Part shown: piece by piece, positions 25,292 through 63,825 of the stretch
Layout: the number at the start of each line of letters is the position of its first letter
How positions within the stretch are numbered: the stretch's first letter is position 1
DNA from: an uncultured Spirochaetota bacterium
Lineage (GTDB): Bacteria; Spirochaetota; Spirochaetia; SZUA-6; Fen-1364
Direction of reading: 5' to 3'
Assembly: GCA_963753085.1 (NCBI GenBank)
Contig: CAVWBF010000022.1
Location: 177,086-241,085, forward strand
Length of the DNA: 64,000 bases
The notes under the pieces: model-generated
Told to the model about the DNA's origin: nothing
What the model saw: only the letters and a program-made list of their open reading frames with translations
Databases searched by the model: none
Program-made: the position numbers and the translations under genes

Positions 25292-27388
25292 GTGAAGGCG
25301 ACGGTGAAAACCGTATCTTTCCCGAGAACCAGCGTCGTGGGCTTCGTGCTTGCCTCCGTCCTCCTGGCGGGGGTGGCGTGGACAGCTGTCCGCAGCCTCG
25401 GGGATTTCCGGCAGGCCACCGCATGGGTTTCTCACACCCTCAGCGTGCGCGAAGAGGCCGAGGGTCTTCTCCTCCTTCTCACCGATGCACAGACGGAACA
25501 AAGCGGATACCTCCTCACCGGCGCACCCTCCTCCCTTTCCCGCTATGAACAGGCGCTCGCCGCGATTCCGCGGCGACTCGCGAGGCTGCGCGCGCTGACC
25601 GCGGACAACACGGCCCAGCAAGCGAACGTCGCGGCGCTCGATGACCTTCTGCCTCGCATGGTGGTCACGCTCCTGCGGGAAGTCGAGGCGCGGCGGCGCC
25701 AGGGTCTGAATGCCGCCGTGGACATGGCGAGGGCCGGTGAAGGGGAGAGGATCATCGATCGGGTCCGTGATGTCGTCACCGGCATCGGCGCAGAGGAGAA
25801 TCGGCTTCTCACGGAACGAAGGGCCCTGGAGGAAATAGAGGCCCGCTGGGCCATGGAAAGGACCATCGGCGGACTTTGTGCCGCCATTGGCCTCCTGGTT
25901 CTTGCGACAGTGCTCCTTGCGCGAGCCCTCCACCATCGGGAGAAACAGGAGACCAGGTTCCAGGCACTCCTGGAATCCGCGCCGGACGCCATGGTCGTGA
26001 TCGACTCCCAGGGCTCCATCGTGATGGTCAACGCCCAGACGGAGAAGCTATTCGGCTACGAGAGGCGCGAGCTCCTCGGAAAGCCCGTTGAGATCCTGGT
26101 GCCTGAACGCTTCCGGGAAAGGCACACGGGCCATCGGAGGGACTTCTTTGCCCATCCGCACACCCGGCCAATGGGGGTCGGCCTTGAGCTCTTCGGCGTG
26201 CGCAGGGACGCCTCCGAGTTTCCCGTGGAGATCGGGCTCAGCCCGCTTGCCACGGCTGAGGGGATGCTCGTGACGGCCGCCATCCGGGACATCACGGACC
26301 GAAAGCGCGCGGAGGATGCGCTGCAGGACCTCCGCGAGCTCTACGAAAAGCTCCTTGGCGTCCAAAGCGACGTTGGTGACGGGGTCACGATAACCAACGG
26401 GACGCGCCTGGTCTTTGCCAACGACGCCCTGTGCAGGATGTACGGGTACACCCTCGAGGAGCTGATGGCGCTTCCCTCCCAGCTCGATCTGGTCGTCCCC
26501 GAAGAACGCGAGAGGCTGGCCGAGCGCCTGCGCAGGCGCATGGCAGGGGAGAGCCTTACGGAGTTCGGGGAGACCCAGGCCATTCGCAAGGACGGAACGC
26601 GTATCATCAACGAGTACGCCGTGAAGCCGGTCAAGGTCAAAGGGGAGACGCTCATCATTTCCATCGTTCGGAATATCACCGAGCGAAAGCGCGCCGAGGA
26701 GTCCATTCGCCAGCTCTCCCAACGACTCCTCCAGGTGCAGGATGAGGAGCAGCAGCGCATCTCGCGGGAGCTGCAATCCGGGGTGGTGCGGGCGCTGGAC
26801 GAGCTTCGCTCGCAGCTGTCGCTCGTGAAGGATTCAGGGACAGTGTTCGACTGGAGGACATCCGACGCCCTGCGGGCCAGCCTCGACCTTGTCCGCAAGG
26901 CGCTCAAGGAGGCGCGAACGCTTTCTCACCTCCTCCATCCCCGTCTCCTCGAGGAATCCGGCATCGTGGAGGCCATCCGGTATTATCAGAACGGGTTTCA
27001 GGAGAGGACCGGCATCAGGGTCATCCTTGACGCGCCGGGCACCTTCGGGAGGCTTTCCGCGGAGGCAGAGCGGTCCCTGTTCCGAGTGGTGCAGGAGTGC
27101 CTGGCGAACATCCATCGTCATGCCCAGGCAGCAACGGCATGGATCTCCCTCCGCGCGGAGACTGACGGCATCAGGCTGGAGGTCCGCGACGACGGGCGCG
27201 GCATGCACCCCGGGGCCTCCGCGGCCTCGGGAGGGGTAGGGATCAGGAGCCTCATGGAACGCATGAGCCAGCTGGGAGGCCGGCTTGAGATACTGTCGGA
27301 TGGAGCGGCAAAGGGGACCCGGGTCATCGCAACGCTTCCGCTCTCCGTCCTGCGCCGCGAAGAGAGCCCTGCAACCCCTCCGGCCTGA
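25292..27388 (+). CDS. Sensor histidine kinase: TM-CHASE3, two PAS domains, HisKA_3, HATPase_c (NarL-partner type)
   Basis: GTG start. N-terminal TM and CHASE3-like helix. PAS cores (MVVIDSQGSIVMVNAQTEKLFGY; VTITNGTRLVFANDALCRMYGY). H-box QDEEQQRISRELQSG. G-box GGVGIRSLMERMSQLGG. Confidence 0.8.
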   Translation: MKATVKTVSFPRTSVVGFVLASVLLAGVAWTAVRSLGDFRQATAWVSHTLSVREEAEGLLLLLTDAQTEQSGYLLTGAPSSLSRYEQALAAIPRRLARLRALTADNTAQQANVAALDDLLPRMVVTLLREVEARRRQGLNAAVDMARAGEGERIIDRVRDVVTGIGAEENRLLTERRALEEIEARWAMERTIGGLCAAIGLLVLATVLLARALHHREKQETRFQALLESAPDAMVVIDSQGSIVMVNAQTEKLFGYERRELLGKPVEILVPERFRERHTGHRRDFFAHPHTRPMGVGLELFGVRRDASEFPVEIGLSPLATAEGMLVTAAIRDITDRKRAEDALQDLRELYEKLLGVQSDVGDGVTITNGTRLVFANDALCRMYGYTLEELMALPSQLDLVVPEERERLAERLRRRMAGESLTEFGETQAIRKDGTRIINEYAVKPVKVKGETLIISIVRNITERKRAEESIRQLSQRLLQVQDEEQQRISRELQSGVVRALDELRSQLSLVKDSGTVFDWRTSDALRASLDLVRKALKEARTLSHLLHPRLLEESGIVEAIRYYQNGFQERTGIRVILDAPGTFGRLSAEAERSLFRVVQECLANIHRHAQAATAWISLRAETDGIRLEVRDDGRGMHPGASAASGGVGIRSLMERMSQLGGRLEILSDGAAKGTRVIATLPLSVLRREESPATPPA

Positions 27389-38835: not shown

Positions 38836-41204
38836 GATGACAACCCATGGGTTGTGCGCTCGATGATCTCCTCCTGGAGGTCAGCTGCCAGCTCGGTATA
38901 ATAGGCGGTGTATCCGGCCACCCGCACGGTGAGGTTCCGGTACCGGTCGGGGTTCTCGCGAGCAGCCCGCAAGTCCGCTTCGTTGATGACATTGAACTGT
39001 ACATGGCTGATCTTCAGGCGAACGAACGCGCGGAGGAATTGGGAAAAGGCCTTCAATCCACGCGCGTCTGCAAACAGCTCGGGAGAGAATTTCAGGTTCA
39101 ACAGGGTTCCATTGCTGCCGAGCTTTGAATCCACCCGGGCCACTGAATTGAGCACCGCCGTTGGTCCGTTCATATCCCTTCCGTAGAGCGCGGACATCCC
39201 TCCATCGGCAAGCGGCGTTCGCGCGCGCCTGCCGTCAGGAGTCGCGCCGACGTTCTGGCCCATGGGCACGTGCGCCGAGACCGTGTACAGACCAGTGTGG
39301 TAGCGCCCCCCCCTGGCGTTGGTGTACTTCCGCAGCCCCTCCGCGAACACCCTCACCCATGTATGCGCCAGCTCGTCAACCCACTCCACGTCGTTGCCGT
39401 ACTTCGGCGCCTTGTTCACGAGCCGGTGCATCAGAATCTGGTCGGACTGGAAATCCGTTTCCATGCCCCGCAGCACTTTCTCCGCGGTCACCACCTTCTC
39501 TTCGTACACCAGCTTCTTGAGGGCGGCCAGGCTATCCGCGACGTTGGCCGGCTGGATGGCCTGGATCCCCGACAGGTTGTAGTGGGCTCCGCCGCGCGTG
39601 ACGTCGACCCCCGTGTCGATGCAATCACGGATGACGGATGAGAGAAACGGGGTGGGCAGCAGCTCGCCATGGATCCGGTCCACGGTGTCGCAGCAGCGGA
39701 TCATGCGCCCGGTGAAGTGTTCGATCTGCCGGGCGAATGCCGCTTCGAGCTGCTCGAACGTGTGGAAATCGGTAAGTCTCCCGAGGTTCAGCCCGAGGGG
39801 CTTGCGGTCCACGAGGCAGAAGCCGCCCGTCAGCGTCAGCTCGAGCGCCTTGACGAGGTTGAACATGGCAGCGTCGCTCCAGCCCAGGTTGTTTCCGTGC
39901 GTGGTCAGCTCCACGCAGCCCACGATGGCGTAGTTGCGCGCGTCGGCCTCGGTGATGCCGACCCCCCGAAGCGCCGGAATCACCGCCTGGTCGCTGAACA
40001 CCTGCGGCATTCCGCTTCCTCTTCCAATGACCCGCGAACACGCCATGAGCAGGTCGTCGGGGCTGCCTTCGAACAGCCTGGCGGAGAGATTGGGCTGGGG
40101 GAGGCCGATCAGCTCCTGGGCCCTGAGGAAAAGGAAGGAGAGCTCGTTCGATGCATCCCGGCCGGCGCCGTCCTGGCCGCCGAGGGCGACGTTGAAGCCG
40201 ATGGGGAATCCCGCGAAATACTTTGCGCTGTGCGAATTGCGCAGGTAGACGATCTGGTTGAACTTGAGCCACAACGCGCATACCAGCTCCAGGGCGCCCG
40301 GCAGGTCCAGCGCCCCCGAGTCCAGGTCCGCCCGCATGTACGGGTACAAGTACTGGTCCACGCGGCCCGGGGAGAAGGAGGAAGCGTTGGATTCCATGTG
40401 GAGAATCACGAACAGGAACCAGACCGATTGAAGGGCTTCGCGGAAAGTGCGCGGCGGACGGTCGGCCAGGCCGTCGCAGATGCGTGCCACCCCGGCAAGC
40501 TCCTCATCGGCGGTCCCCGCCGGCCCGCTCGCCAATTCGCGTGCCAGTGCCGCGTACCGCCTCATGAACGTGCGGGCGCCTTCCAGGCTGAGAATCACCG
40601 CCTCGAAGAAGCGACCCGGATCACACCGCGTGCGGGCTCGCTCCTCCGCCTCCCGCTGCAGCCCCGCGGGTCCGAGACGCAGCCACCCTTCGGCGTCCGG
40701 GCAGATGTGGCCCTGGGCATGATCCTTCTGGTTGATCTTCACGACGCGCGCAATCGCGTCGATCTCCGGGCCGATCTCTTTCCTGATGGCGTCCTCGAGG
40801 GTGTGACCGGACCAGTACGGGAGGATCTCGTCACGGAAGGTCCGCACGTCCTCCGCGCGCACGTTGAACCGATCCTGCTCGCGCGTCGGGAGCTGCTCTA
40901 TTTCCTTGTCCACCCACGATATGCCTGCCTCGGGGAACACCACCCCGGCACGCACGCCGGCCGTCCGGTTGCCCACAATGAGCTCTCCCGGGTCTATCCG
41001 GATCTTCATCTCGCTCAGGCAGGCCTGGAGTGACCTCGCTCTTCGGACGATGACCGGCTCCCCCTCCGTCTCGCGGTACACTCTCGTGATTATTCCCGCC
41101 TGTTCTATTGAAAGGAACCGCGGCTCGGCCAGCATTTCGCTCTTGAGCTGCTCGAAGCGCCCGCTCAGCGGAAGCCGCTCTATCTCTGCGACATACTCAC
41201 GCAT
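38832..41204 (-). CDS. Glycyl radical enzyme, eliminase/dehydratase type (PFL superfamily), substrate unknown: GRE 1
   Basis: 790 aa. C-terminal glycyl-radical motif TVRVAGYTAYY and active-site block IVGCVELTTHGNN (the Cys-x-Glu typical of 1,2-eliminases such as glycerol/propanediol dehydratase, CutC and HypD). Confidence 0.9.
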   Translation of the reverse strand: MREYVAEIERLPLSGRFEQLKSEMLAEPRFLSIEQAGIITRVYRETEGEPVIVRRARSLQACLSEMKIRIDPGELIVGNRTAGVRAGVVFPEAGISWVDKEIEQLPTREQDRFNVRAEDVRTFRDEILPYWSGHTLEDAIRKEIGPEIDAIARVVKINQKDHAQGHICPDAEGWLRLGPAGLQREAEERARTRCDPGRFFEAVILSLEGARTFMRRYAALARELASGPAGTADEELAGVARICDGLADRPPRTFREALQSVWFLFVILHMESNASSFSPGRVDQYLYPYMRADLDSGALDLPGALELVCALWLKFNQIVYLRNSHSAKYFAGFPIGFNVALGGQDGAGRDASNELSFLFLRAQELIGLPQPNLSARLFEGSPDDLLMACSRVIGRGSGMPQVFSDQAVIPALRGVGITEADARNYAIVGCVELTTHGNNLGWSDAAMFNLVKALELTLTGGFCLVDRKPLGLNLGRLTDFHTFEQLEAAFARQIEHFTGRMIRCCDTVDRIHGELLPTPFLSSVIRDCIDTGVDVTRGGAHYNLSGIQAIQPANVADSLAALKKLVYEEKVVTAEKVLRGMETDFQSDQILMHRLVNKAPKYGNDVEWVDELAHTWVRVFAEGLRKYTNARGGRYHTGLYTVSAHVPMGQNVGATPDGRRARTPLADGGMSALYGRDMNGPTAVLNSVARVDSKLGSNGTLLNLKFSPELFADARGLKAFSQFLRAFVRLKISHVQFNVINEADLRAARENPDRYRNLTVRVAGYTAYYTELAADLQEEIIERTTHGLSS

Positions 41205-52971: not shown

Positions 52972-54111
52972 TTACTCCGTCGGCACCGTGACCCAGCTGT
53001 CGGATTTCGCCGACGCGTACGCGGCGTCCAGGATCAGCTGGTTGAGGAGACCGTCCCGGATTCCAGGCTCGGGTTTCTTTCCTTCCGCCACCGCGCGCAG
53101 GAACGCGTACTGGCATTCCGCGTGCGCGCGCGTCCAGCCCAGGATGGAGCGTGCAGGCGGAACTGCTGCCCCCTTGTAGTGCTGCACCGTCTCCAGCCGT
53201 GTCCATCCCAGGTCACCGCCCAGGAAGCCGCCGGCTTTCGTTCCGTCGAACCAGTACAGCCAGTTGGCGTCCATCAGGCTGAAGCGCAGCGCGCCCTTGC
53301 TTCCGTAGATCTCGAGGTTCAGGTCATCCAGGGACCCTGTGGCAAACCGCGAAACCTCGATTGTGCCGAAGCCTCCGCCGGCAAGCCGCACCTCAAGCCA
53401 GGCCGCGTCATCAACCGTCACATCTCCCAGCGTCCTGGAGCCGCGTTCGACCGGCCTTTGCTTGATGTATGTCTTCATGATGGCACGAACGGAATGGAGC
53501 TCCCCCAGGAGGTGCCGCACCAGGTCGATCAGGTGCGACCCCATGTCCACCAGGGCCCCGCCGCCGGACAGCTCCTGTTTCATTCTCCAGCCCAGCGGCC
53601 GCTGGGGATCCTGGTAGCCGGTGTGGAAATACTCCGCTCGAAAGTTGTAGATCTCCCCCAGGGCCCCATCCGCGATCATCTGCCGTGCGCGCGTGATGGC
53701 CGGGACGAAGCGATAATTGAACGTCATCCCCACTGAGACGCCGGCCTTTTCCGCCACCCGGACGATCTCCCTTGCCTCCGCGGCGTTCAACGCAAGCGGC
53801 TTCTCGCAGTAGACGTGCTTGCCTGCCGCAATAGCCGCCAGGAGTGTCTGGCGATGCTGGTAATTCGGCGTTGAGCAGTCGACAACGGTCACTTCCTTCA
53901 GCCGCACGAGCTCCCCGACGTCGCTGAACGAGGCCGCGTACCCGCCCTCCGCCGCAGCCGCGCGCGCGGACTCCGCGTGCGAGGTGCACACCGCGGCCAG
54001 GGAAAGCTTTGGCAGGGTGCCGGGATAGTACACGGGAAGCTCCCGGTACGAGAGGGTATGGACCCGCCCGATATAGCCGTAGCCGACAAGCCCGATTCCG
54101 ATGGTTTCCAT
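52972..54111 (-). CDS. Gfo/Idh/MocA-family NAD(P)-dependent oxidoreductase (inositol/sugar dehydrogenase-like)
   Basis: 379 aa. N-terminal Rossmann GIGLVGYGYIGRVH and an EKP-containing middle region (HVYCEKPLAL). Confidence 0.85.
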   Translation of the reverse strand: METIGIGLVGYGYIGRVHTLSYRELPVYYPGTLPKLSLAAVCTSHAESARAAAAEGGYAASFSDVGELVRLKEVTVVDCSTPNYQHRQTLLAAIAAGKHVYCEKPLALNAAEAREIVRVAEKAGVSVGMTFNYRFVPAITRARQMIADGALGEIYNFRAEYFHTGYQDPQRPLGWRMKQELSGGGALVDMGSHLIDLVRHLLGELHSVRAIMKTYIKQRPVERGSRTLGDVTVDDAAWLEVRLAGGGFGTIEVSRFATGSLDDLNLEIYGSKGALRFSLMDANWLYWFDGTKAGGFLGGDLGWTRLETVQHYKGAAVPPARSILGWTRAHAECQYAFLRAVAEGKKPEPGIRDGLLNQLILDAAYASAKSDSWVTVPTE

Positions 54112-59138: not shown

Positions 59139-60233
59139 TCAGGGGCCGCGTGCGGATTGGGCGCTGGCGCAGCTGGAGCGAATGCGAAGCTCAGGGACTA
59201 TCCGAAATACCTCAGGAGTGAAGCTCCCGCGGCTCATTCCTTCCATGATAGAGGCGAGGACGCGCTCCGAGAGCCTGTCGTATCCTGGGTCCACCGATGT
59301 GAGCTCCATGCCCCGGGCAAGCCGGGTGTTGCCCCATCCCACCACGGCGGAGTCGACGCCGGCGTTGAGCCCCGCCCCCCGCAGGGCCCTGACCGCTCCC
59401 GTTGCCGTCTCATCAGAGGAGCAGAGGAAGGCGCGGCATCCGGGCATCCGCCCCAGGACGCTTCGCGCCGCCTGGCTTCCTCCGTCGAGGCCCGGGACGC
59501 AGGTTTCCACGATGCCGGCTTCAGGACGCATACCGCGGCCGGAGATCCCCTCCGCGAAACCCAGCTGCAGCGCGGCCTGCGCATGTGCCGCGCCCGAAGC
59601 CAGGAGAGCGATGATGCCGTACCCGAGGTCCCTCAGGTAGCCCACGGCCCTGCGGGCGCCCTCGGCGTCATCCAGCACGACCTGCGGGCAGGACGCCTCG
59701 GAGGCGAAGCTTCGGATGAGGATGGTGCCCGCGAGCGGCGCCTCCGCGCCGTCCTGGGGCTCCATCGAGCCCGCGGGCTGAAGAACGAGAAGCGCACCGC
59801 TTTCGCGCGATTCCTGGTACAGGCTGCGGGCAAGAAGGACGTCGCCGTGATGGCAGGAGAAACGGACCGGCAGCGGCACTTTTCTCAGCTGGGTCTCGAG
59901 GCTTTCCAGGAGAAGGGCGTTTGCCTCGTCCAGCTCATCGCATACAAGGTGAGCCCAGGGGAAACTGAGGAGCTTTCGCGGCACCGGTGAGCGCTCCCGC
60001 GCATAGATGACGATGGTGCCTTTGCCGCTGTAGCGCTCGATATACCCATCCAGCACCAGCTTGGCCAAGGCATTTCTGACAGTCAGGTGAGTGGTATTGA
60101 ACCGGTCCTTGAGCACCCGCTCCGGCGGAAACCAGTCGCCCTTCTTATAGGTGCCTGAAAGGATCTCCTTTTTCAGCTCGCCGTAGATCTGCTCGTACAG
60201 GTAGCGCTTTGAGTCTTCTCGGTCCGGGGGCAT
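59139..60233 (-). CDS. AraR-like transcriptional regulator: GntR-family winged HTH fused to a LacI/GalR-type periplasmic-binding-fold sugar sensor domain
   Basis: Starts at MPPDREDSKRYLYEQIYGELKKEIL. GntR HTH (FPPERVLKDRFNTTHLTVRNALAKLVLDGYI) plus C-terminal PBP1 effector-domain features. An alternative start is at 60281. Confidence 0.75.
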   Translation of the reverse strand: MPPDREDSKRYLYEQIYGELKKEILSGTYKKGDWFPPERVLKDRFNTTHLTVRNALAKLVLDGYIERYSGKGTIVIYARERSPVPRKLLSFPWAHLVCDELDEANALLLESLETQLRKVPLPVRFSCHHGDVLLARSLYQESRESGALLVLQPAGSMEPQDGAEAPLAGTILIRSFASEASCPQVVLDDAEGARRAVGYLRDLGYGIIALLASGAAHAQAALQLGFAEGISGRGMRPEAGIVETCVPGLDGGSQAARSVLGRMPGCRAFLCSSDETATGAVRALRGAGLNAGVDSAVVGWGNTRLARGMELTSVDPGYDRLSERVLASIMEGMSRGSFTPEVFRIVPELRIRSSCASAQSARGP

Positions 60234-60281
60234 GCGTCTTCCGTTGTGTGCCACTGTAGAGCGGGATGCTCCGGGTTTCAA

Positions 60282-60563
60282 GAAGAGCCTCTTCTCAGCG
60301 CGCGTCCTGATCGCATGAAAACCCTCTTCATCGCTATATATAATATCCAGACTTTCTACTCCTTGGCAATTAGATTTTAATTAGTTATTGTATAAATAAT
60401 TGAATAACTTTATCAAGAATAGCGCTATATAGTTTTATGTCTTATTCTGGTTTCGTGGAGAATCCGAAGAAAAATCGAAAATTCCTGTTGACAAACAGGC
60501 CAACCTATTATATATAGCGCTATATACAGTGATGCGACTGGTGGGATTCAAAGGAGACGCTCC
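60282..60563. promoter_or_regulatory. AT-rich (~30% GC) divergent control region with three regularly spaced GCGCTATATA-type sites, including a perfect 16-bp palindrome TATATAGCGCTATATA (60511-60526) overlapping a TTGACA, 17 nt, TATATA promoter
   Basis: Read directly: -35 TTGACA at 60488-60493, and sites at about 60329-60340, 60419-60431 and 60511-60526 with ~93-nt spacing. An AAGGAG ribosome-binding site precedes the ATG at 60564. Confidence 0.5.
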
Positions 60564-61328
60564 ATGGACCTTGGTCTGAAAGGAAAAACGGCAATCGTGA
60601 CGGGAGGCGGGACCGGAATCGGGGCGGGCATCTGCGAAGCCCTGGCCCAGGAGGGGGTCAACGTCGCGATCAACTGGATTGTCGGCAAGGACGAGGTGAC
60701 GGCTTTTGCCGCCGAGCTGTCCGCCAGGTATGGATCGGACTGCCGCCCCTTTTACGCCGACGTGTCCAAGGCGGAGGATCTGGACGCGATGGTGAAAGAG
60801 GTGGCCGCCGCGTACGGCCACATCGACATCCTGGTCAACAATGCCGGCATCTGGCCCACGGAGAACATCCTGGACATGACGGATTGCAGCTGGGAAAAAG
60901 TCATCAGGATCAATCTCAACGGCCCGTTCCTTCTTTCCCGGCGGGTGGCAAAACACATGGTGGACGCGGGCATCAAGGGAAGCATCATCAACCTTTCCTC
61001 GAAGTCCGGCATTACGTACAACACCGCCGGGCATGCCCATTACGCTTCGGCCAAGGCCGGGATCAACATGCTGACCAAGACCCTGGCCCGTGAGCTTCTG
61101 CCCTACGGCATCCGGGCCAACGCGATTGCACCGGGCATGGTCCGAACGCCGATCAACGAGGACAAGTGGACGGACCCCGAGCTGAAGAAGGCATACGAAG
61201 CGCGTATTCCCTCCGGGAGATTCGCGCAGCCGGTCGAGATCGGCTACACGGTTGCCTTCCTGGCATCAGAGAAGTCTTTCAACATCATGGGAACGGTGAT
61301 CGATATCACCGGCGGAATGCTGATATAG
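60564..61328 (+). CDS. Short-chain dehydrogenase/reductase (classical SDR)
   Basis: 254 aa. TGGGTGIGAGI coenzyme motif, NNAG, catalytic Y-x3-K (YASAK). Confidence 0.85.
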   Translation: MDLGLKGKTAIVTGGGTGIGAGICEALAQEGVNVAINWIVGKDEVTAFAAELSARYGSDCRPFYADVSKAEDLDAMVKEVAAAYGHIDILVNNAGIWPTENILDMTDCSWEKVIRINLNGPFLLSRRVAKHMVDAGIKGSIINLSSKSGITYNTAGHAHYASAKAGINMLTKTLARELLPYGIRANAIAPGMVRTPINEDKWTDPELKKAYEARIPSGRFAQPVEIGYTVAFLASEKSFNIMGTVIDITGGMLI

Positions 61329-61360
61329 AGGGCGCCGTTTCGGGCGCGGGAGGAAACGTC

Positions 61361-62140
61361 GTGGGCGTTGACTTGAAGGGAAAAACGTGCGTTGTGACGG
61401 GCTCCGCCAAGAGCATCGGACTTGGCGTGGCGGAGATGTACGCGGGGCTGGGAGCGAAAGTGGCGATGATCGACCTCAATCCCGAGGTCGTGACGCAGGC
61501 GGAGCGCATGGGCAAGGCAGGGCATTGCGTGCGCGGGTACGTGGTCGACATCACGGACCGCGACGCGGTCATGAGGTGCTTTGACGACATCGAGAAGACA
61601 CTCGGGGACGTCTATGCGCTGGCAAACGTCGCCGGGGCCGTGGATCAGCAGCCTTTCACGGAGATCACACCCGAGCGGCTGGACACGATGAACAGGATCA
61701 ACATCAACGGCTCCGTGTGGTGCGCGCAGGCGGCCCTGCGGACCATGAAGGGTTTGAAGAACGGCCGCATCATCAATTTTGCCTCCAAGTCGGGAAAGAC
61801 GGGCTCTGCCATCATGGCGGCCTACTCGGGAGCCAAGGGGGCAATCATCTCCGTCACCCACGCCATGGCGTTCGAGCTGGCTAAGGACAACATCAAGGTC
61901 AACTGCCTGTGCCCCGGCATCGTGGAAAACACCGGCGTGTGGGGCTCGGTGAGCAAGGGCTACGTGGAGAACCTCAAGATGGAGGAGGAGGCGGTCGTGA
62001 AGCAGTTCACCTCCAAGGTACCCCTCGGAAGATTGTGCAGAATCGACGACGTGGTGTCGTTCGTGAGGTTCCTGACCGTGGACGGAGACTACTGCACGGG
62101 GCAGGCGTTCAACATCACGGGCGGCCGTGAGATGCATTAA
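61361..62140 (+). CDS. Short-chain dehydrogenase/reductase (second SDR)
   Basis: GTG start 6 nt after a GGGAGGA ribosome-binding site. [10 protein letters not shown] motif and YSGAKGAI catalytic Tyr/Lys. The ORF-track extension back to 61166 overlaps the first SDR and is not credible. Confidence 0.8.
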
Positions 62141-62160: not shown

Positions 62161-62481
62161 ATGATGGCGGAGAACCAGAATGAAGCATTGGGAATGATCG
62201 AGACGCGCGGGTTCAGCGCGATGGTGGAAGCAGCCGACGCCATGGTGAAGGCGGCAAAGGTGGACCTGATCGGGTTCGAGAAAATCGGCGGCGGGTACGT
62301 GACGGCGATTGTCCGAGGGGATGTGGCCGCCTGCCGGGCCGCGGTGGAGGCGGGCAGCCGCGCCGCTGAGAAGGTGGGGGAGATCGTCAGCACGCACGTG
62401 ATTCCGCGGCCGCACACCTCCGTGGATGCGGCTTTGCCCATAGGGCGGCAGCCGATCGGGCGCACTGAAGGGAAGGCGTAG
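62161..62481 (+). CDS. Bacterial microcompartment hexameric shell protein (BMC-H, PduA/EutM type)
   Basis: [57 protein letters not shown]...HVIPRPH is the canonical Pfam00936 sequence. Confidence 0.9.
62197..62440 (+). repeat. About 245-bp direct repeat, copy A: the BMC-H core coding region, >95% identical to 63211..63454
   Basis: Long identical nucleotide runs are visible between the two BMC-H genes. The mirrored identical peptides in the minus-strand ORFs 62115..62717 and 62967..63407 confirm the duplication. Confidence 0.85.
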
Positions 62482-62483
62482 CC

Positions 62484-63125
62484 ATGGCCGTGGACCTGAG
62501 GAGCTACGTGTTCCTGGATTCGCTTCAGCTGCAGAACGCTTCGTTCATTGCCACGGTGTCCAAGGGGTACTACCCCATAGGCGGACAGGCCTGCTGCGTG
62601 ATCGAGATTGCCCCGGGGATCGAGATCAACAGGCTCACCGATATTGCCCTGAAGGCGACAAACGTCACCCCCGGGCTGCAGATCGTGGAACGCGCGTACG
62701 GGCTTCTGGAGGTGCACTCGGACAGCCAGGGGGACGCCCGCATGGCGGGGGAAGCGGTGCTGAAGGAGCTGAAGAAAAGCGAATCAGACCGGCTGAAGCC
62801 GCGGGTGATGACGAGCCAGCTCATCAAGAACATTTCGGACCACCATGCCCAGCTGATCAACAAGGTGCGCCACGGCAACATGGTTCTCCGCGGTGACACG
62901 CTCTACGTGCTGGAGGTGGAGCCGGCCGGCTACGCTTACTATGCGGCCAACGAAGCGGAGAAAACCTCAGAGGTCAACATCATCGAGGTGCTGGGCTTCG
63001 GGGCGTTCGGAAGGGTCTACATCGCGGGAGAAGAGGCGGAGGTGATCGAGGCGCGCAGGATCGTGGAAGCGCGGCTGGAAAGCCTTTCGGGACGGCAGAT
63101 AGCCGCGAATGCGGCGCGGATATAG
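62484..63125 (+). CDS. Probable tandem-domain BMC shell protein (BMC-T-like, divergent)
   Basis: 213 aa with two BMC-like halves (…[16 protein letters not shown]…; …[26 protein letters not shown]…), flanked by BMC-H genes. Confidence 0.55.
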
Positions 63126-63141: not shown

Positions 63142-63504
63142 ATGGCTGAAAACGACTTTGATGCCCAGGGCGCGGGGTCCGCGCACAGCGCAGGGTCTGC
63201 GCTCGGAATGATCGAGACGCGCGGGTTCAGCGCGATGGTGGAAGCGGCCGACGCCATGGTGAAGGCGGCAAAGGTGGACCTGATCGGGTTCGAGAAAATC
63301 GGCGGCGGGTACGTGACGGCGATTGTCCGAGGGGATGTGGCCGCCTGCCGGGCCGCGGTGGAAGCGGGCAGCCGCGCCGCGGAGAAGGTGGGGGAGATCG
63401 TCAGCACGCACGTGATCCCGCGGCCTCACGAGAGCGTGGATGCGGCGCTGCCCCTGGGGCGGCAGGCACCCGCGCGGAAGCCGGCCCCGGCGGGAAAGAA
63501 GTAG
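63142..63504 (+). CDS. BMC-H shell protein, near-identical paralog of 62161..62481 with a longer N-terminal tail and a Pro/Ala/Lys-rich C-terminal tail
   Basis: The core domain is about 97% nucleotide-identical to the first BMC-H gene. Starts at MAENDFDAQ. Confidence 0.9.
63211..63454 (+). repeat. About 245-bp direct repeat, copy B, paired with 62197..62440
   Basis: Same as copy A. Confidence 0.85.
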
Positions 63505-63516
63505 AGAGCCGCTCCC

Positions 63517-63825
63517 ATGGTACTGGCGCGGGTGACGGGCACCGTGGTCTCCACGCACAAGCCGGGCTCGATGCAGGGGCTTCGACTCCTTCTTCTGGAG
63601 AAGGTGGACGCGGTGACCCTGAAGGGCAAGGGCGATTACGTGGTGGGCATTGACGGCGTTGGCGCGAACGCCGGGGAGATCGTCTTCTACGTGACCGGCT
63701 CCAGCGCGCGCATGACGGATACCACCAAGGGCAAGCCCTCGGATGCCACCATCATCGCAATCGTGGACGTCATTGAGAAAGACGGGACCGTCACCTACCA
63801 GAAAGCGGGAGAGGCGGCCTCGTGA
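63517..63825 (+). CDS. BMC pentameric vertex protein (EutN/PduN/CcmL family)
   Basis: 102 aa. MVLARVTGTVVSTHKPGSMQGLRLLLLE... matches Pfam03319. Confidence 0.85.
   Translation: MVLARVTGTVVSTHKPGSMQGLRLLLLEKVDAVTLKGKGDYVVGIDGVGANAGEIVFYVTGSSARMTDTTKGKPSDATIIAIVDVIEKDGTVTYQKAGEAAS

Follow-up and report, generated by a model that had tools for sequence, protein, structure and literature searches.

Few metabolosomes are as widespread as the sugar phosphate utilisation (SPU) microcompartments, of which 26 phyla have yielded more than 280 loci (PMC8217296). The type is recognised by DeoC, RpiB and AldDH together with a BMC-P multiplet (PMC8217296, PMC11585597), its criteria being BMC-H, BMC-T, at least three BMC-P, a DeoC-type aldolase (PF01791), RpiB (PF02502) and an aldehyde dehydrogenase (PMC8217296). 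The natural substrate and the regulation of SPU systems are still largely inferred, and the papers on them cited here describe no operator or inducer (PMC8217296, PMC11585597). As for regulators encoded at metabolosome loci, the SPU6 locus of Chloroflexi has one of the GntR/UTRA (HutC) type (PMC11585597) and RMM1 loci carry a GntR regulator together with a short-chain dehydrogenase (PMC4207490), no operator for either kind of locus being described in these two papers. AraR of Bacillus subtilis, in turn, represses via 16-bp palindromes at its target promoters, whereas the promoter of araR itself has only one site (PMC3592433, PMC1950556), with each monomer reading one core motif and the spacing of the motifs setting the geometry (PMC3592433).

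The 64-kb stretch of DNA analysed here (the window) contains a divergent control region (60282-60563) that separates a regulator gene on the minus strand from an operon on the plus strand, which opens with two SDR genes and continues with microcompartment shell genes. We consider it likely that a palindrome within this region, site C, and the promoter that it overlaps form the switch by which a sugar-sensing repressor controls this SPU-type operon. Binding, repression, transcription starts and inducer we infer from sequence elements, their conservation, their co-occurrence with regulator and operon, and domain architecture, the organisms all being uncultivated MAGs. What is new is the operator motif and the target of a repressor of AraR architecture, both of which the comparisons below support well; the kind of system is already known. 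Among the papers that could be searched, none contains the motif.

As in SPU6 and RMM1, a GntR-family regulator gene stands at the edge of a metabolosome locus, but its effector domain has a LacI-type periplasmic-binding fold here and is of the UTRA or other types there. AraR is the closer parallel in several respects: both proteins are chimeras of a GntR winged helix-turn-helix (HTH) and a LacI/GalR-type sugar-binding domain, collinear over their full length; the operators of both systems are 16-bp palindromes centred on CG (for AraR, the ara boxes ORA1/ORA2, ORE1/ORE2 and ORR3); and AraR has strong sites at its catabolic promoters and a lone weaker site at its own, an arrangement that we predict from sequence here too. 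The two differ in the operator itself, which is TATATAGCGCTATATA as against the AraR consensus ATTTGTACGTACAAAT with its GT...AC (PMC1950556, PMC3592433), in the inter-operator distance (91-95 nt here and variable in relatives, against in-phase pairs at 42-43 nt for AraR) and in the target, which is a microcompartment operon rather than arabinose genes. The lac system (LacI with O1, O2 and O3) resembles the present one in that the sensor is homologous to LacI-family cores and the main operator lies on promoter and start site, with auxiliary sites ~90 nt off. In lac, the O1-O3 distance is 92 bp. Unlike LacI, with its HTH plus hinge, the protein described here has a GntR winged helix for DNA binding and no evident C-terminal tetramerisation helix, and the spacing of its sites is unconserved among relatives.

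The control region had been described in a first-pass annotation as ~30% GC within a ~67% GC genome. Over its 282 bp we measured 37.6%, the lower figure holding for the core alone (60330-60530; 29.9%), and the mean of the 64-kb window was 63.4% rather than 67%. The AT-rich gap (60282-60563) has by a wide margin the lowest GC content anywhere in the 64 kb, where the runner-up stands at 45%. Wherever regulator and SDR1 adjoin in related loci, the intergenic GC is 39-52%, as compared to 59-65% for the whole locus. The further outline given by the first-pass annotation, a divergent control region with a palindrome overlapping the promoter of the SDR-BMC operon (a candidate of the sigma-70 type), was sound, all of its elements being readable in the sequence.

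Site C, the candidate main operator, is the perfect 16-bp palindrome TATATAGCGCTATATA (60511-60526, no strand), composed of two convergent copies of the 9-bp unit TATATAGCG that overlap by two bases. It begins exactly 17 nt (spacer, 60494-60510) after the -35 hexamer TTGACA (60488-60493, plus strand), and its left arm supplies the -10 hexamer TATATA (60511-60516, plus strand), which confirms the proposed overlap of palindrome and -10 in a TTGACA-17-TATATA promoter. Conserved flanks, A[T/C]Tn...nAGT, extend the site to 60507-60530. TATATA matches the -10 consensus at four of six positions and lacks the usually critical final T; the promoter is missing from our promoter scan because the scan demands T at the last -10 position. 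Upstream of the -35 lie A-tracts (60467-60483, plus strand; AAAAA at 60470-60474 and AAAA at 60478-60481), which by analogy with the known E. coli UP-element pattern may have UP-element-like function, and A-rich columns are kept at these positions across 24 aligned promoters. Together, A-tracts, TTGACA, 17-nt spacer and TATATA make up a strong-looking candidate promoter of the sigma-70 type for the operon. The SDR1 ribosome-binding site, AAAGGAGA (60550-60557, plus strand), precedes the ATG at 60564, and relatives have GGAGG-like sites at the same position.

Taken alone, a perfect 16-bp palindrome is poor evidence of function: the window holds four against 1.6 expected. Within this intergenic region, however, only 139 of 20,000 shuffles (0.7%) yielded one. 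The other three palindromes in the window are GCGCCTGCGCAGGCGC (26524-26539), ACAACCCATGGGTTGT (38840-38855) and CCCAGCGGCCGCTGGG (53591-53606). Decisive support for the putative operator comes from cross-species conservation. A species-level scan with one genome per species returned 24 loci, every one of them from Spirochaetota MAGs (24/24; sources peat, fen and soil), and in 20 of the 24 the regulator gene (REG) is divergent from SDR1-SDR2-BMC shell genes. An alignment anchored on the palindrome comprised 24 non-identical promoters, namely those of the window, 20 loci and three metagenome contigs. Across it, TTGACA is exact throughout (24/24), its distance to the palindrome is 17 nt in all but one promoter (23/24; the exception is L022) and the 16-mer TATATAGCGCTATATA is exact in 20/24; the remaining four comprise L001, with a one-base central insertion, and L017, L020 and L024, with one or two changes in the right-hand arm. 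Mean information content per position amounted to 1.94 bit for the palindrome and 1.83 bit for the -35, as against 0.62 bit for the spacer and ~0.4 bit for the flanks. In all loci the palindrome centre lies 25-58 nt 5' of the SDR1 ATG, and in L002, L004, L007 and L011, where other genes separate regulator and SDR1 by 1-3.7 kb, the palindrome is still found beside SDR1. Both arms of site C are equally conserved although the right one has no promoter role, which argues for recognition by a symmetric protein.

The same picture emerges from the surroundings of the motif. When six full intergenic regions were aligned, the blocks that survived were the regulator's N-terminal coding block, three sites (A, B and C), the A-tract and the -35. 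Within the 64 kb, ATAGCGCTAT and GCGCTATATA were found only in this intergenic region, with 0.3-0.4 matches expected and the observed count reached by none of the shuffles; apart from one exception, the 9-mer TATATAGCG occurs over the 330 kb of window and loci only in these intergenic regions. The association of palindrome and regulator suggested in the first pass finds support in strict co-occurrence and in conservation across ~20 orthologous loci.

Two of the related loci depart from the common form in ways of their own. In L001, the palindrome with the one-base central insertion (TATATAGCTGCTATATA; L001:1766-1782) stands in a promoter otherwise near-identical to that of L023, and the insertion reflects either misassembly or a natural mutation of the operator spacing. 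In L022 (2100-3243), a contig of Treponema sp. UBA12037, no more than 9 nt separate TTGACA and palindrome and the regulator match is split over two frames, so that this copy may be decaying or mis-assembled.

A metagenome-wide scan for the 16-mer gave at least 120 matches. Of the matches listed, only three correspond to the promoter described here. Roughly half come from hypersaline-brine contigs, where the 16-mer is part of an unrelated repeat, and the remainder resemble chance occurrences in AT-rich DNA; as listed, the scan neither delimits the regulon nor proves the motif unique across organisms. The brine loci (L029, L041, L068, L083, L084, L086, L097, L125 and ~50 more) carry the 16-mer inside an element of three to five direct TATAGCGC units within ~80 nt, followed by CGCCGACCCCT. 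Usually 50-350 nt from a contig end, and with few long ORFs in the two contigs checked, this element looks like a terminal repeat or origin of a halophile replicon, or like a eukaryotic element. A scan of viral contigs for the 16-mer returned 26 scattered matches, none of them relevant.

The regulator gene (59139-60281, minus strand) encodes a GntR winged HTH and a LacI/GalR-type periplasmic-binding-protein-like sensor. Its Pfam matches (GntR over the full 64-position profile, PF00392, E=1.1e-15; Peripla_BP_3, E=2e-13; Peripla_BP_1, E=3e-7) place the predicted protein in the GntR superfamily, with an N-terminal winged HTH, and assign it the architecture of the AraR subfamily, in which a GntR HTH is fused to a LacI/GalR-type effector domain. 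The first-pass description of the adjacent divergent gene as AraR-like hence applies to its architecture, GntR and Peripla_BP_3 domains both being found. Orthology to AraR was considered and rejected: identity to the B. subtilis protein is 21%, collinear over the full length (AraR residues 5-357), the operator is different, no ara genes occur among the neighbours (SDRs and shell proteins, with AldDH, RpiB and DeoC in the orthologous locus L025), and two of the three critical DNA-contact residues of AraR are replaced (K4 by L, Q61 by S), while the third, R45, is kept, as are Y5 and E30. The best solved-structure matches to the sensor are LacI-family cores (top 9nt3, E=1e-13), and B. subtilis AraR was absent from the phmmer matches to solved structures at E <= 0.001.

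More than 130 homologues of the regulator were found, the named ones coming from Spirochaetia MAGs. Across 33 homologues at 43-98% identity, the HTH (residues ~29-77 of the 364-aa form) is near-invariant, and outside it identity falls to 43-70%; a near-invariant HTH amid a diverged remainder fits an invariant operator. Compared to the window, the structural genes of L001-L024 (SDR1, SDR2, shell proteins) are 80-96% identical and the regulator 46-67%, save for the invariant HTH. This contrast may reflect either rapid evolution of the sensor domain or the spread of operon plus promoter among these spirochaetes by transfer. A paralogue with an identical HTH is found in L016 (4978-6001), divergent from an IclR-family gene and adjoining SDR-like and uroporphyrinogen-decarboxylase-like genes, with the variant motif GCTATAGAGCGATATAG 45 nt 5' of the paralogue start; L016 may represent another regulon served by this DNA-binding family, and its related motif counts in favour of our main reading.

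Gene callers place the start of the regulator differently (364 aa vs 388 aa; P0001, P0002). We take TTG at 60281 (380 aa) rather than ATG at 60233 (364 aa) to be probably the start, in view of a 16-codon N-terminal extension (60234-60281, minus strand), (L/M)KxRxPR[SP]TVAxxGS, whose peptide sequence is kept in related loci while its codons change synonymously, and of a Shine-Dalgarno-like purine-rich block 7-10 nt 5' of the TTG in nearly all loci. A consensus scan had placed a proximal regulator promoter (TTGAAA-17-TACAGT) here, at 60281-60253; this candidate was dropped, as the pattern of peptide conservation with synonymous codon changes marks the block as coding. Immediately upstream, a small ORF (uORF; 60278-60331, minus strand; 17 codons, or 12 from a second ATG at 60316) begins just past site A, and its TGA overlaps the TTG start of the regulator (TTGA). 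The same +1-frame stop/start overlap is present in 13 of 18 related loci, with an unconserved peptide of 10-32 codons (42 and 59 codons in L004 and L019 if an ATG upstream of site A is counted); in L006 the uORF ATG is fused in frame with the regulator. The uORF may be translated, and the overlap hints that the regulator is controlled through translational coupling or through its leader.

Two more sites lie upstream of the palindrome. The first-pass annotation had placed them at about 93 and 186 nt as further sites of related sequence, and had taken their regular phasing as suggestive of looping or cooperative binding. By direct reading, ATCGCTATATATA is located at 60330-60342 and ATAGCGCTATATA at 60419-60431, and the GCGCTATATA-type units of the three sites start at 60331, 60422 and 60517. 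The total of 186 nt is therefore right, but it divides into gaps of 91 and 95 nt rather than a strict 93. Nor are the two sites copies of the palindrome, site A being a lone 9-bp unit and site B, in most relatives, a different palindrome, CGCTATATAGCG. A spacing of ~93 nt is limited to the window and the loci closest to it (L001, L023, L026). In the other loci, the distances between A, B and C vary from 74 to 390 nt, and no common helical phase was found for the three sites (Rayleigh p 0.08-0.97; 9-11 loci per site pair; periods of 10, 10.5 and 11 bp). With inter-site distances unconserved, regular phasing does not hold as a general feature. Cooperative looping of the AraR type needs two in-phase operators at the proper spacing for full repression; DNA looping between the present sites may occur, but the comparison of loci lends it no support.

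Site A, a candidate autoregulatory operator, consists of the single unit TATATAGCG (60332-60340, minus strand; extended form ATTATATATAGCG, 60332-60344, minus strand) and points at the regulator. It is kept in 15 loci, 83-140 nt 5' of the regulator ATG, and abuts a candidate regulator promoter (60340-60369, minus strand) made up of TTGCCA (60369-60364), 18 nt and TATTAT (60345-60340), which scored 10/12 consensus matches in a scan of the window. In most loci, site A stands 15 nt after TTGACc, the -35 of the relatives, unlike the TTGCCA of the window. Site B, a putative auxiliary operator, is ATAGCGCTATATAGTT (60419-60434, no strand) in the window, matching the site-C palindrome at 13/16 and CGCTATATAGCG at 10/12 positions. 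In most relatives it has the form CGCTATATAGCG, that is, two divergent TATATAGCG copies sharing TATATA, of which the window holds a degenerate version; the 12-mer is exact in nine related loci and has one or two mismatches in six more. In L002, L004, L007 and L011, site B is positioned directly 5' of the ribosome-binding site of a lactonase-like gene, downstream of a TTGACA-17-TTnAnT promoter.

The operon that site C would control comprises, all on the plus strand and assigned from Pfam and NCBIfam, SDR1 (60564-61328, ATG start), SDR2 (61358-62140, GTG start), a BMC-H gene (62161-62481), a tandem, CcmP-like BMC-T gene (62484-63125), a second BMC-H gene (63142-63504) and a BMC-P gene (63517-63825), and the window ends within it. 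To follow the operon past the window, we turned to L025 and L026. The orthologous locus L025, on a 1.56-Mb contig, continues after the first BMC-P with a second BMC-P, AldDH, two more BMC-P, RpiB and a DeoC aldolase, followed by ribulose-phosphate 3-epimerase, aldose epimerase and aldo-keto reductase. Combining the shell genes of the window with AldDH, RpiB, DeoC and three BMC-P from L025, the gene content is that of an SPU-type microcompartment, and the CcmP-like BMC-T points to the SPU2/SPU3 group. The lactonase-like gene that intervenes between regulator and SDR1 in four loci (L002:4737-5612, L004:3243-4115, L007:4760-5635, L011:1562-2437) is of the SMP-30/gluconolactonase type (291 aa; Pfam SGL, E=2e-70) and lies directly behind a CGCTATATAGCG site; no homologue was found in the 64-kb window. 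It is likely an extra member of the regulon, and its presence hints at a pathway that opens with sugar oxidation (SDR), followed by lactone hydrolysis.

In the mechanism that we propose, a dimer of the regulator would sit on the palindrome of site C, covering the -10 and the start site and thereby excluding RNA polymerase. A sugar or sugar phosphate bound in the C-terminal sensor domain would release the regulator, whereupon the two SDR genes and the microcompartment genes would be transcribed. At the regulator's own promoter, the lone TATATAGCG would afford weaker autorepression, and the pair in site B, between the two promoters, might act as an auxiliary operator and, in some genomes, as the operator of the intervening lactonase gene. 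A symmetric dimer cannot bind C and B in the same geometry, which makes the three-site model partly speculative; the monomer-per-motif reading of AraR provides a precedent for one unit in several arrangements.

Among alternatives, the one that survives best accepts the palindrome as a true operator and has it bound by a factor encoded elsewhere, e.g. a global carbon-catabolite regulator. Adjacency and co-occurrence are all that tie the protein to the DNA, and in the four loci with a lactonase gene (L002, L004, L007, L011) the palindrome lies 1-3.7 kb from the regulator gene; against this, 15 loci have the 9-bp unit at the promoter of the regulator itself as well. Two further points count against our main reading too: the GT...AC signature that GntR-family sites usually have (PMC1950556) is missing from the operator, and the paralogues in L018 and L021, which share the HTH, have no motif within 6 kb. 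The near-invariant HTH nevertheless matches the invariant site, and the unit occurs essentially nowhere else in the 330 kb, unlike the pattern expected of a global regulator. Since the unit is limited to the divergon and present at the regulator promoter, we regard a distant or global factor as unlikely. A larger regulon, or a competing regulator, is possible beyond the 64 kb of this genome that were scanned.

Alternatively, TATATAGCG could be a promoter-core module, i.e. a -10 with a GC-rich discriminator, common to the three promoters, the symmetry of site C being incidental. E. coli rrnB P1 has such a -10 and discriminator, TATAAT followed by GCGC. In A, B and C alike, one copy of the unit points toward the downstream gene, and at site C it is placed exactly 17 nt after a perfect -35. 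Yet the offset from the -35 is 17 nt for the operon, 15 nt for the regulator in most loci and ~35 nt for the lactonase gene, which has a separate -10-like hexamer at 17 nt, and at site C the right arm, which has no -35 partner, varies no more than the left. This variable offset among three promoters, together with the invariant right arm, argues for a protein recognition element. Likewise, site B lies downstream of its own -10 in the loci that carry the lactonase gene and is kept in loci where gene, -35 and promoter are absent, so the unit is more than a -10 element. We consider the promoter-module reading quite improbable.

Less probable again is that the adjacent regulator binds these sites as an activator or dual regulator of the operon. 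The direction of control is unreadable from sequence, sites A and B could be activator positions, and the imperfect -10, TATATA, might need help; with a perfect -35, optimal spacing and A-tracts, however, the promoter should need no activation. The best site, moreover, overlaps the -10 and start region, which is the classic position of a repressor, and the characterised proteins of this architecture are repressors (PMC3592433). That the palindrome works through nucleic-acid structure, as a DNA cruciform or a 5'-leader hairpin independent of protein, is hardly credible: in its favour, the inverted repeat is perfect and without a gap and its TA steps melt easily, but the RNA hairpin reaches just -2.6 kcal/mol, palindrome and leader fold no better than shuffled sequence (z = 0.27, 0.60, -0.14), the Rfam scan found no match (60100-60700, E<=1), the palindrome would lie mostly upstream of the transcript with the -10 at 60511-60516, and leader length varies among relatives (by the 25-58 nt span given above) with no conserved structure.

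The reading that we prefer, a local repressor occluding a promoter, is ordinary as a regulatory mechanism. We also put forward, tentatively and with more doubt than confidence, that one regulator and one 9-bp unit, TATATAGCG, in three geometries, together with gating by the uORF, constitute the master switch of the spirochaete SPU microcompartment. Here, the convergent overlapping pair (C) would impose tight repression on the microcompartment operon, the divergent overlapping pair (B) would serve auxiliary or lactonase control and the lone unit (A) would permit leaky autorepression, with synthesis of the regulator further gated by a translated uORF whose stop overlaps the TTG start. As a tool, regulator and operator might make a compact expression switch with tight repression.

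Within the SPU family, the spirochaete version is set apart by two additional SDRs and, in some genomes, a lactonase, and it now has a sharply delimited candidate operator, a candidate promoter and a putative cognate sensor protein. The ligand that releases the regulator from the 16-bp site should be the entry metabolite of the pathway or an early intermediate. If the three-geometry master switch is true, its inducer would reveal the natural substrate of a microcompartment type that ranks among the most widespread and the least understood.
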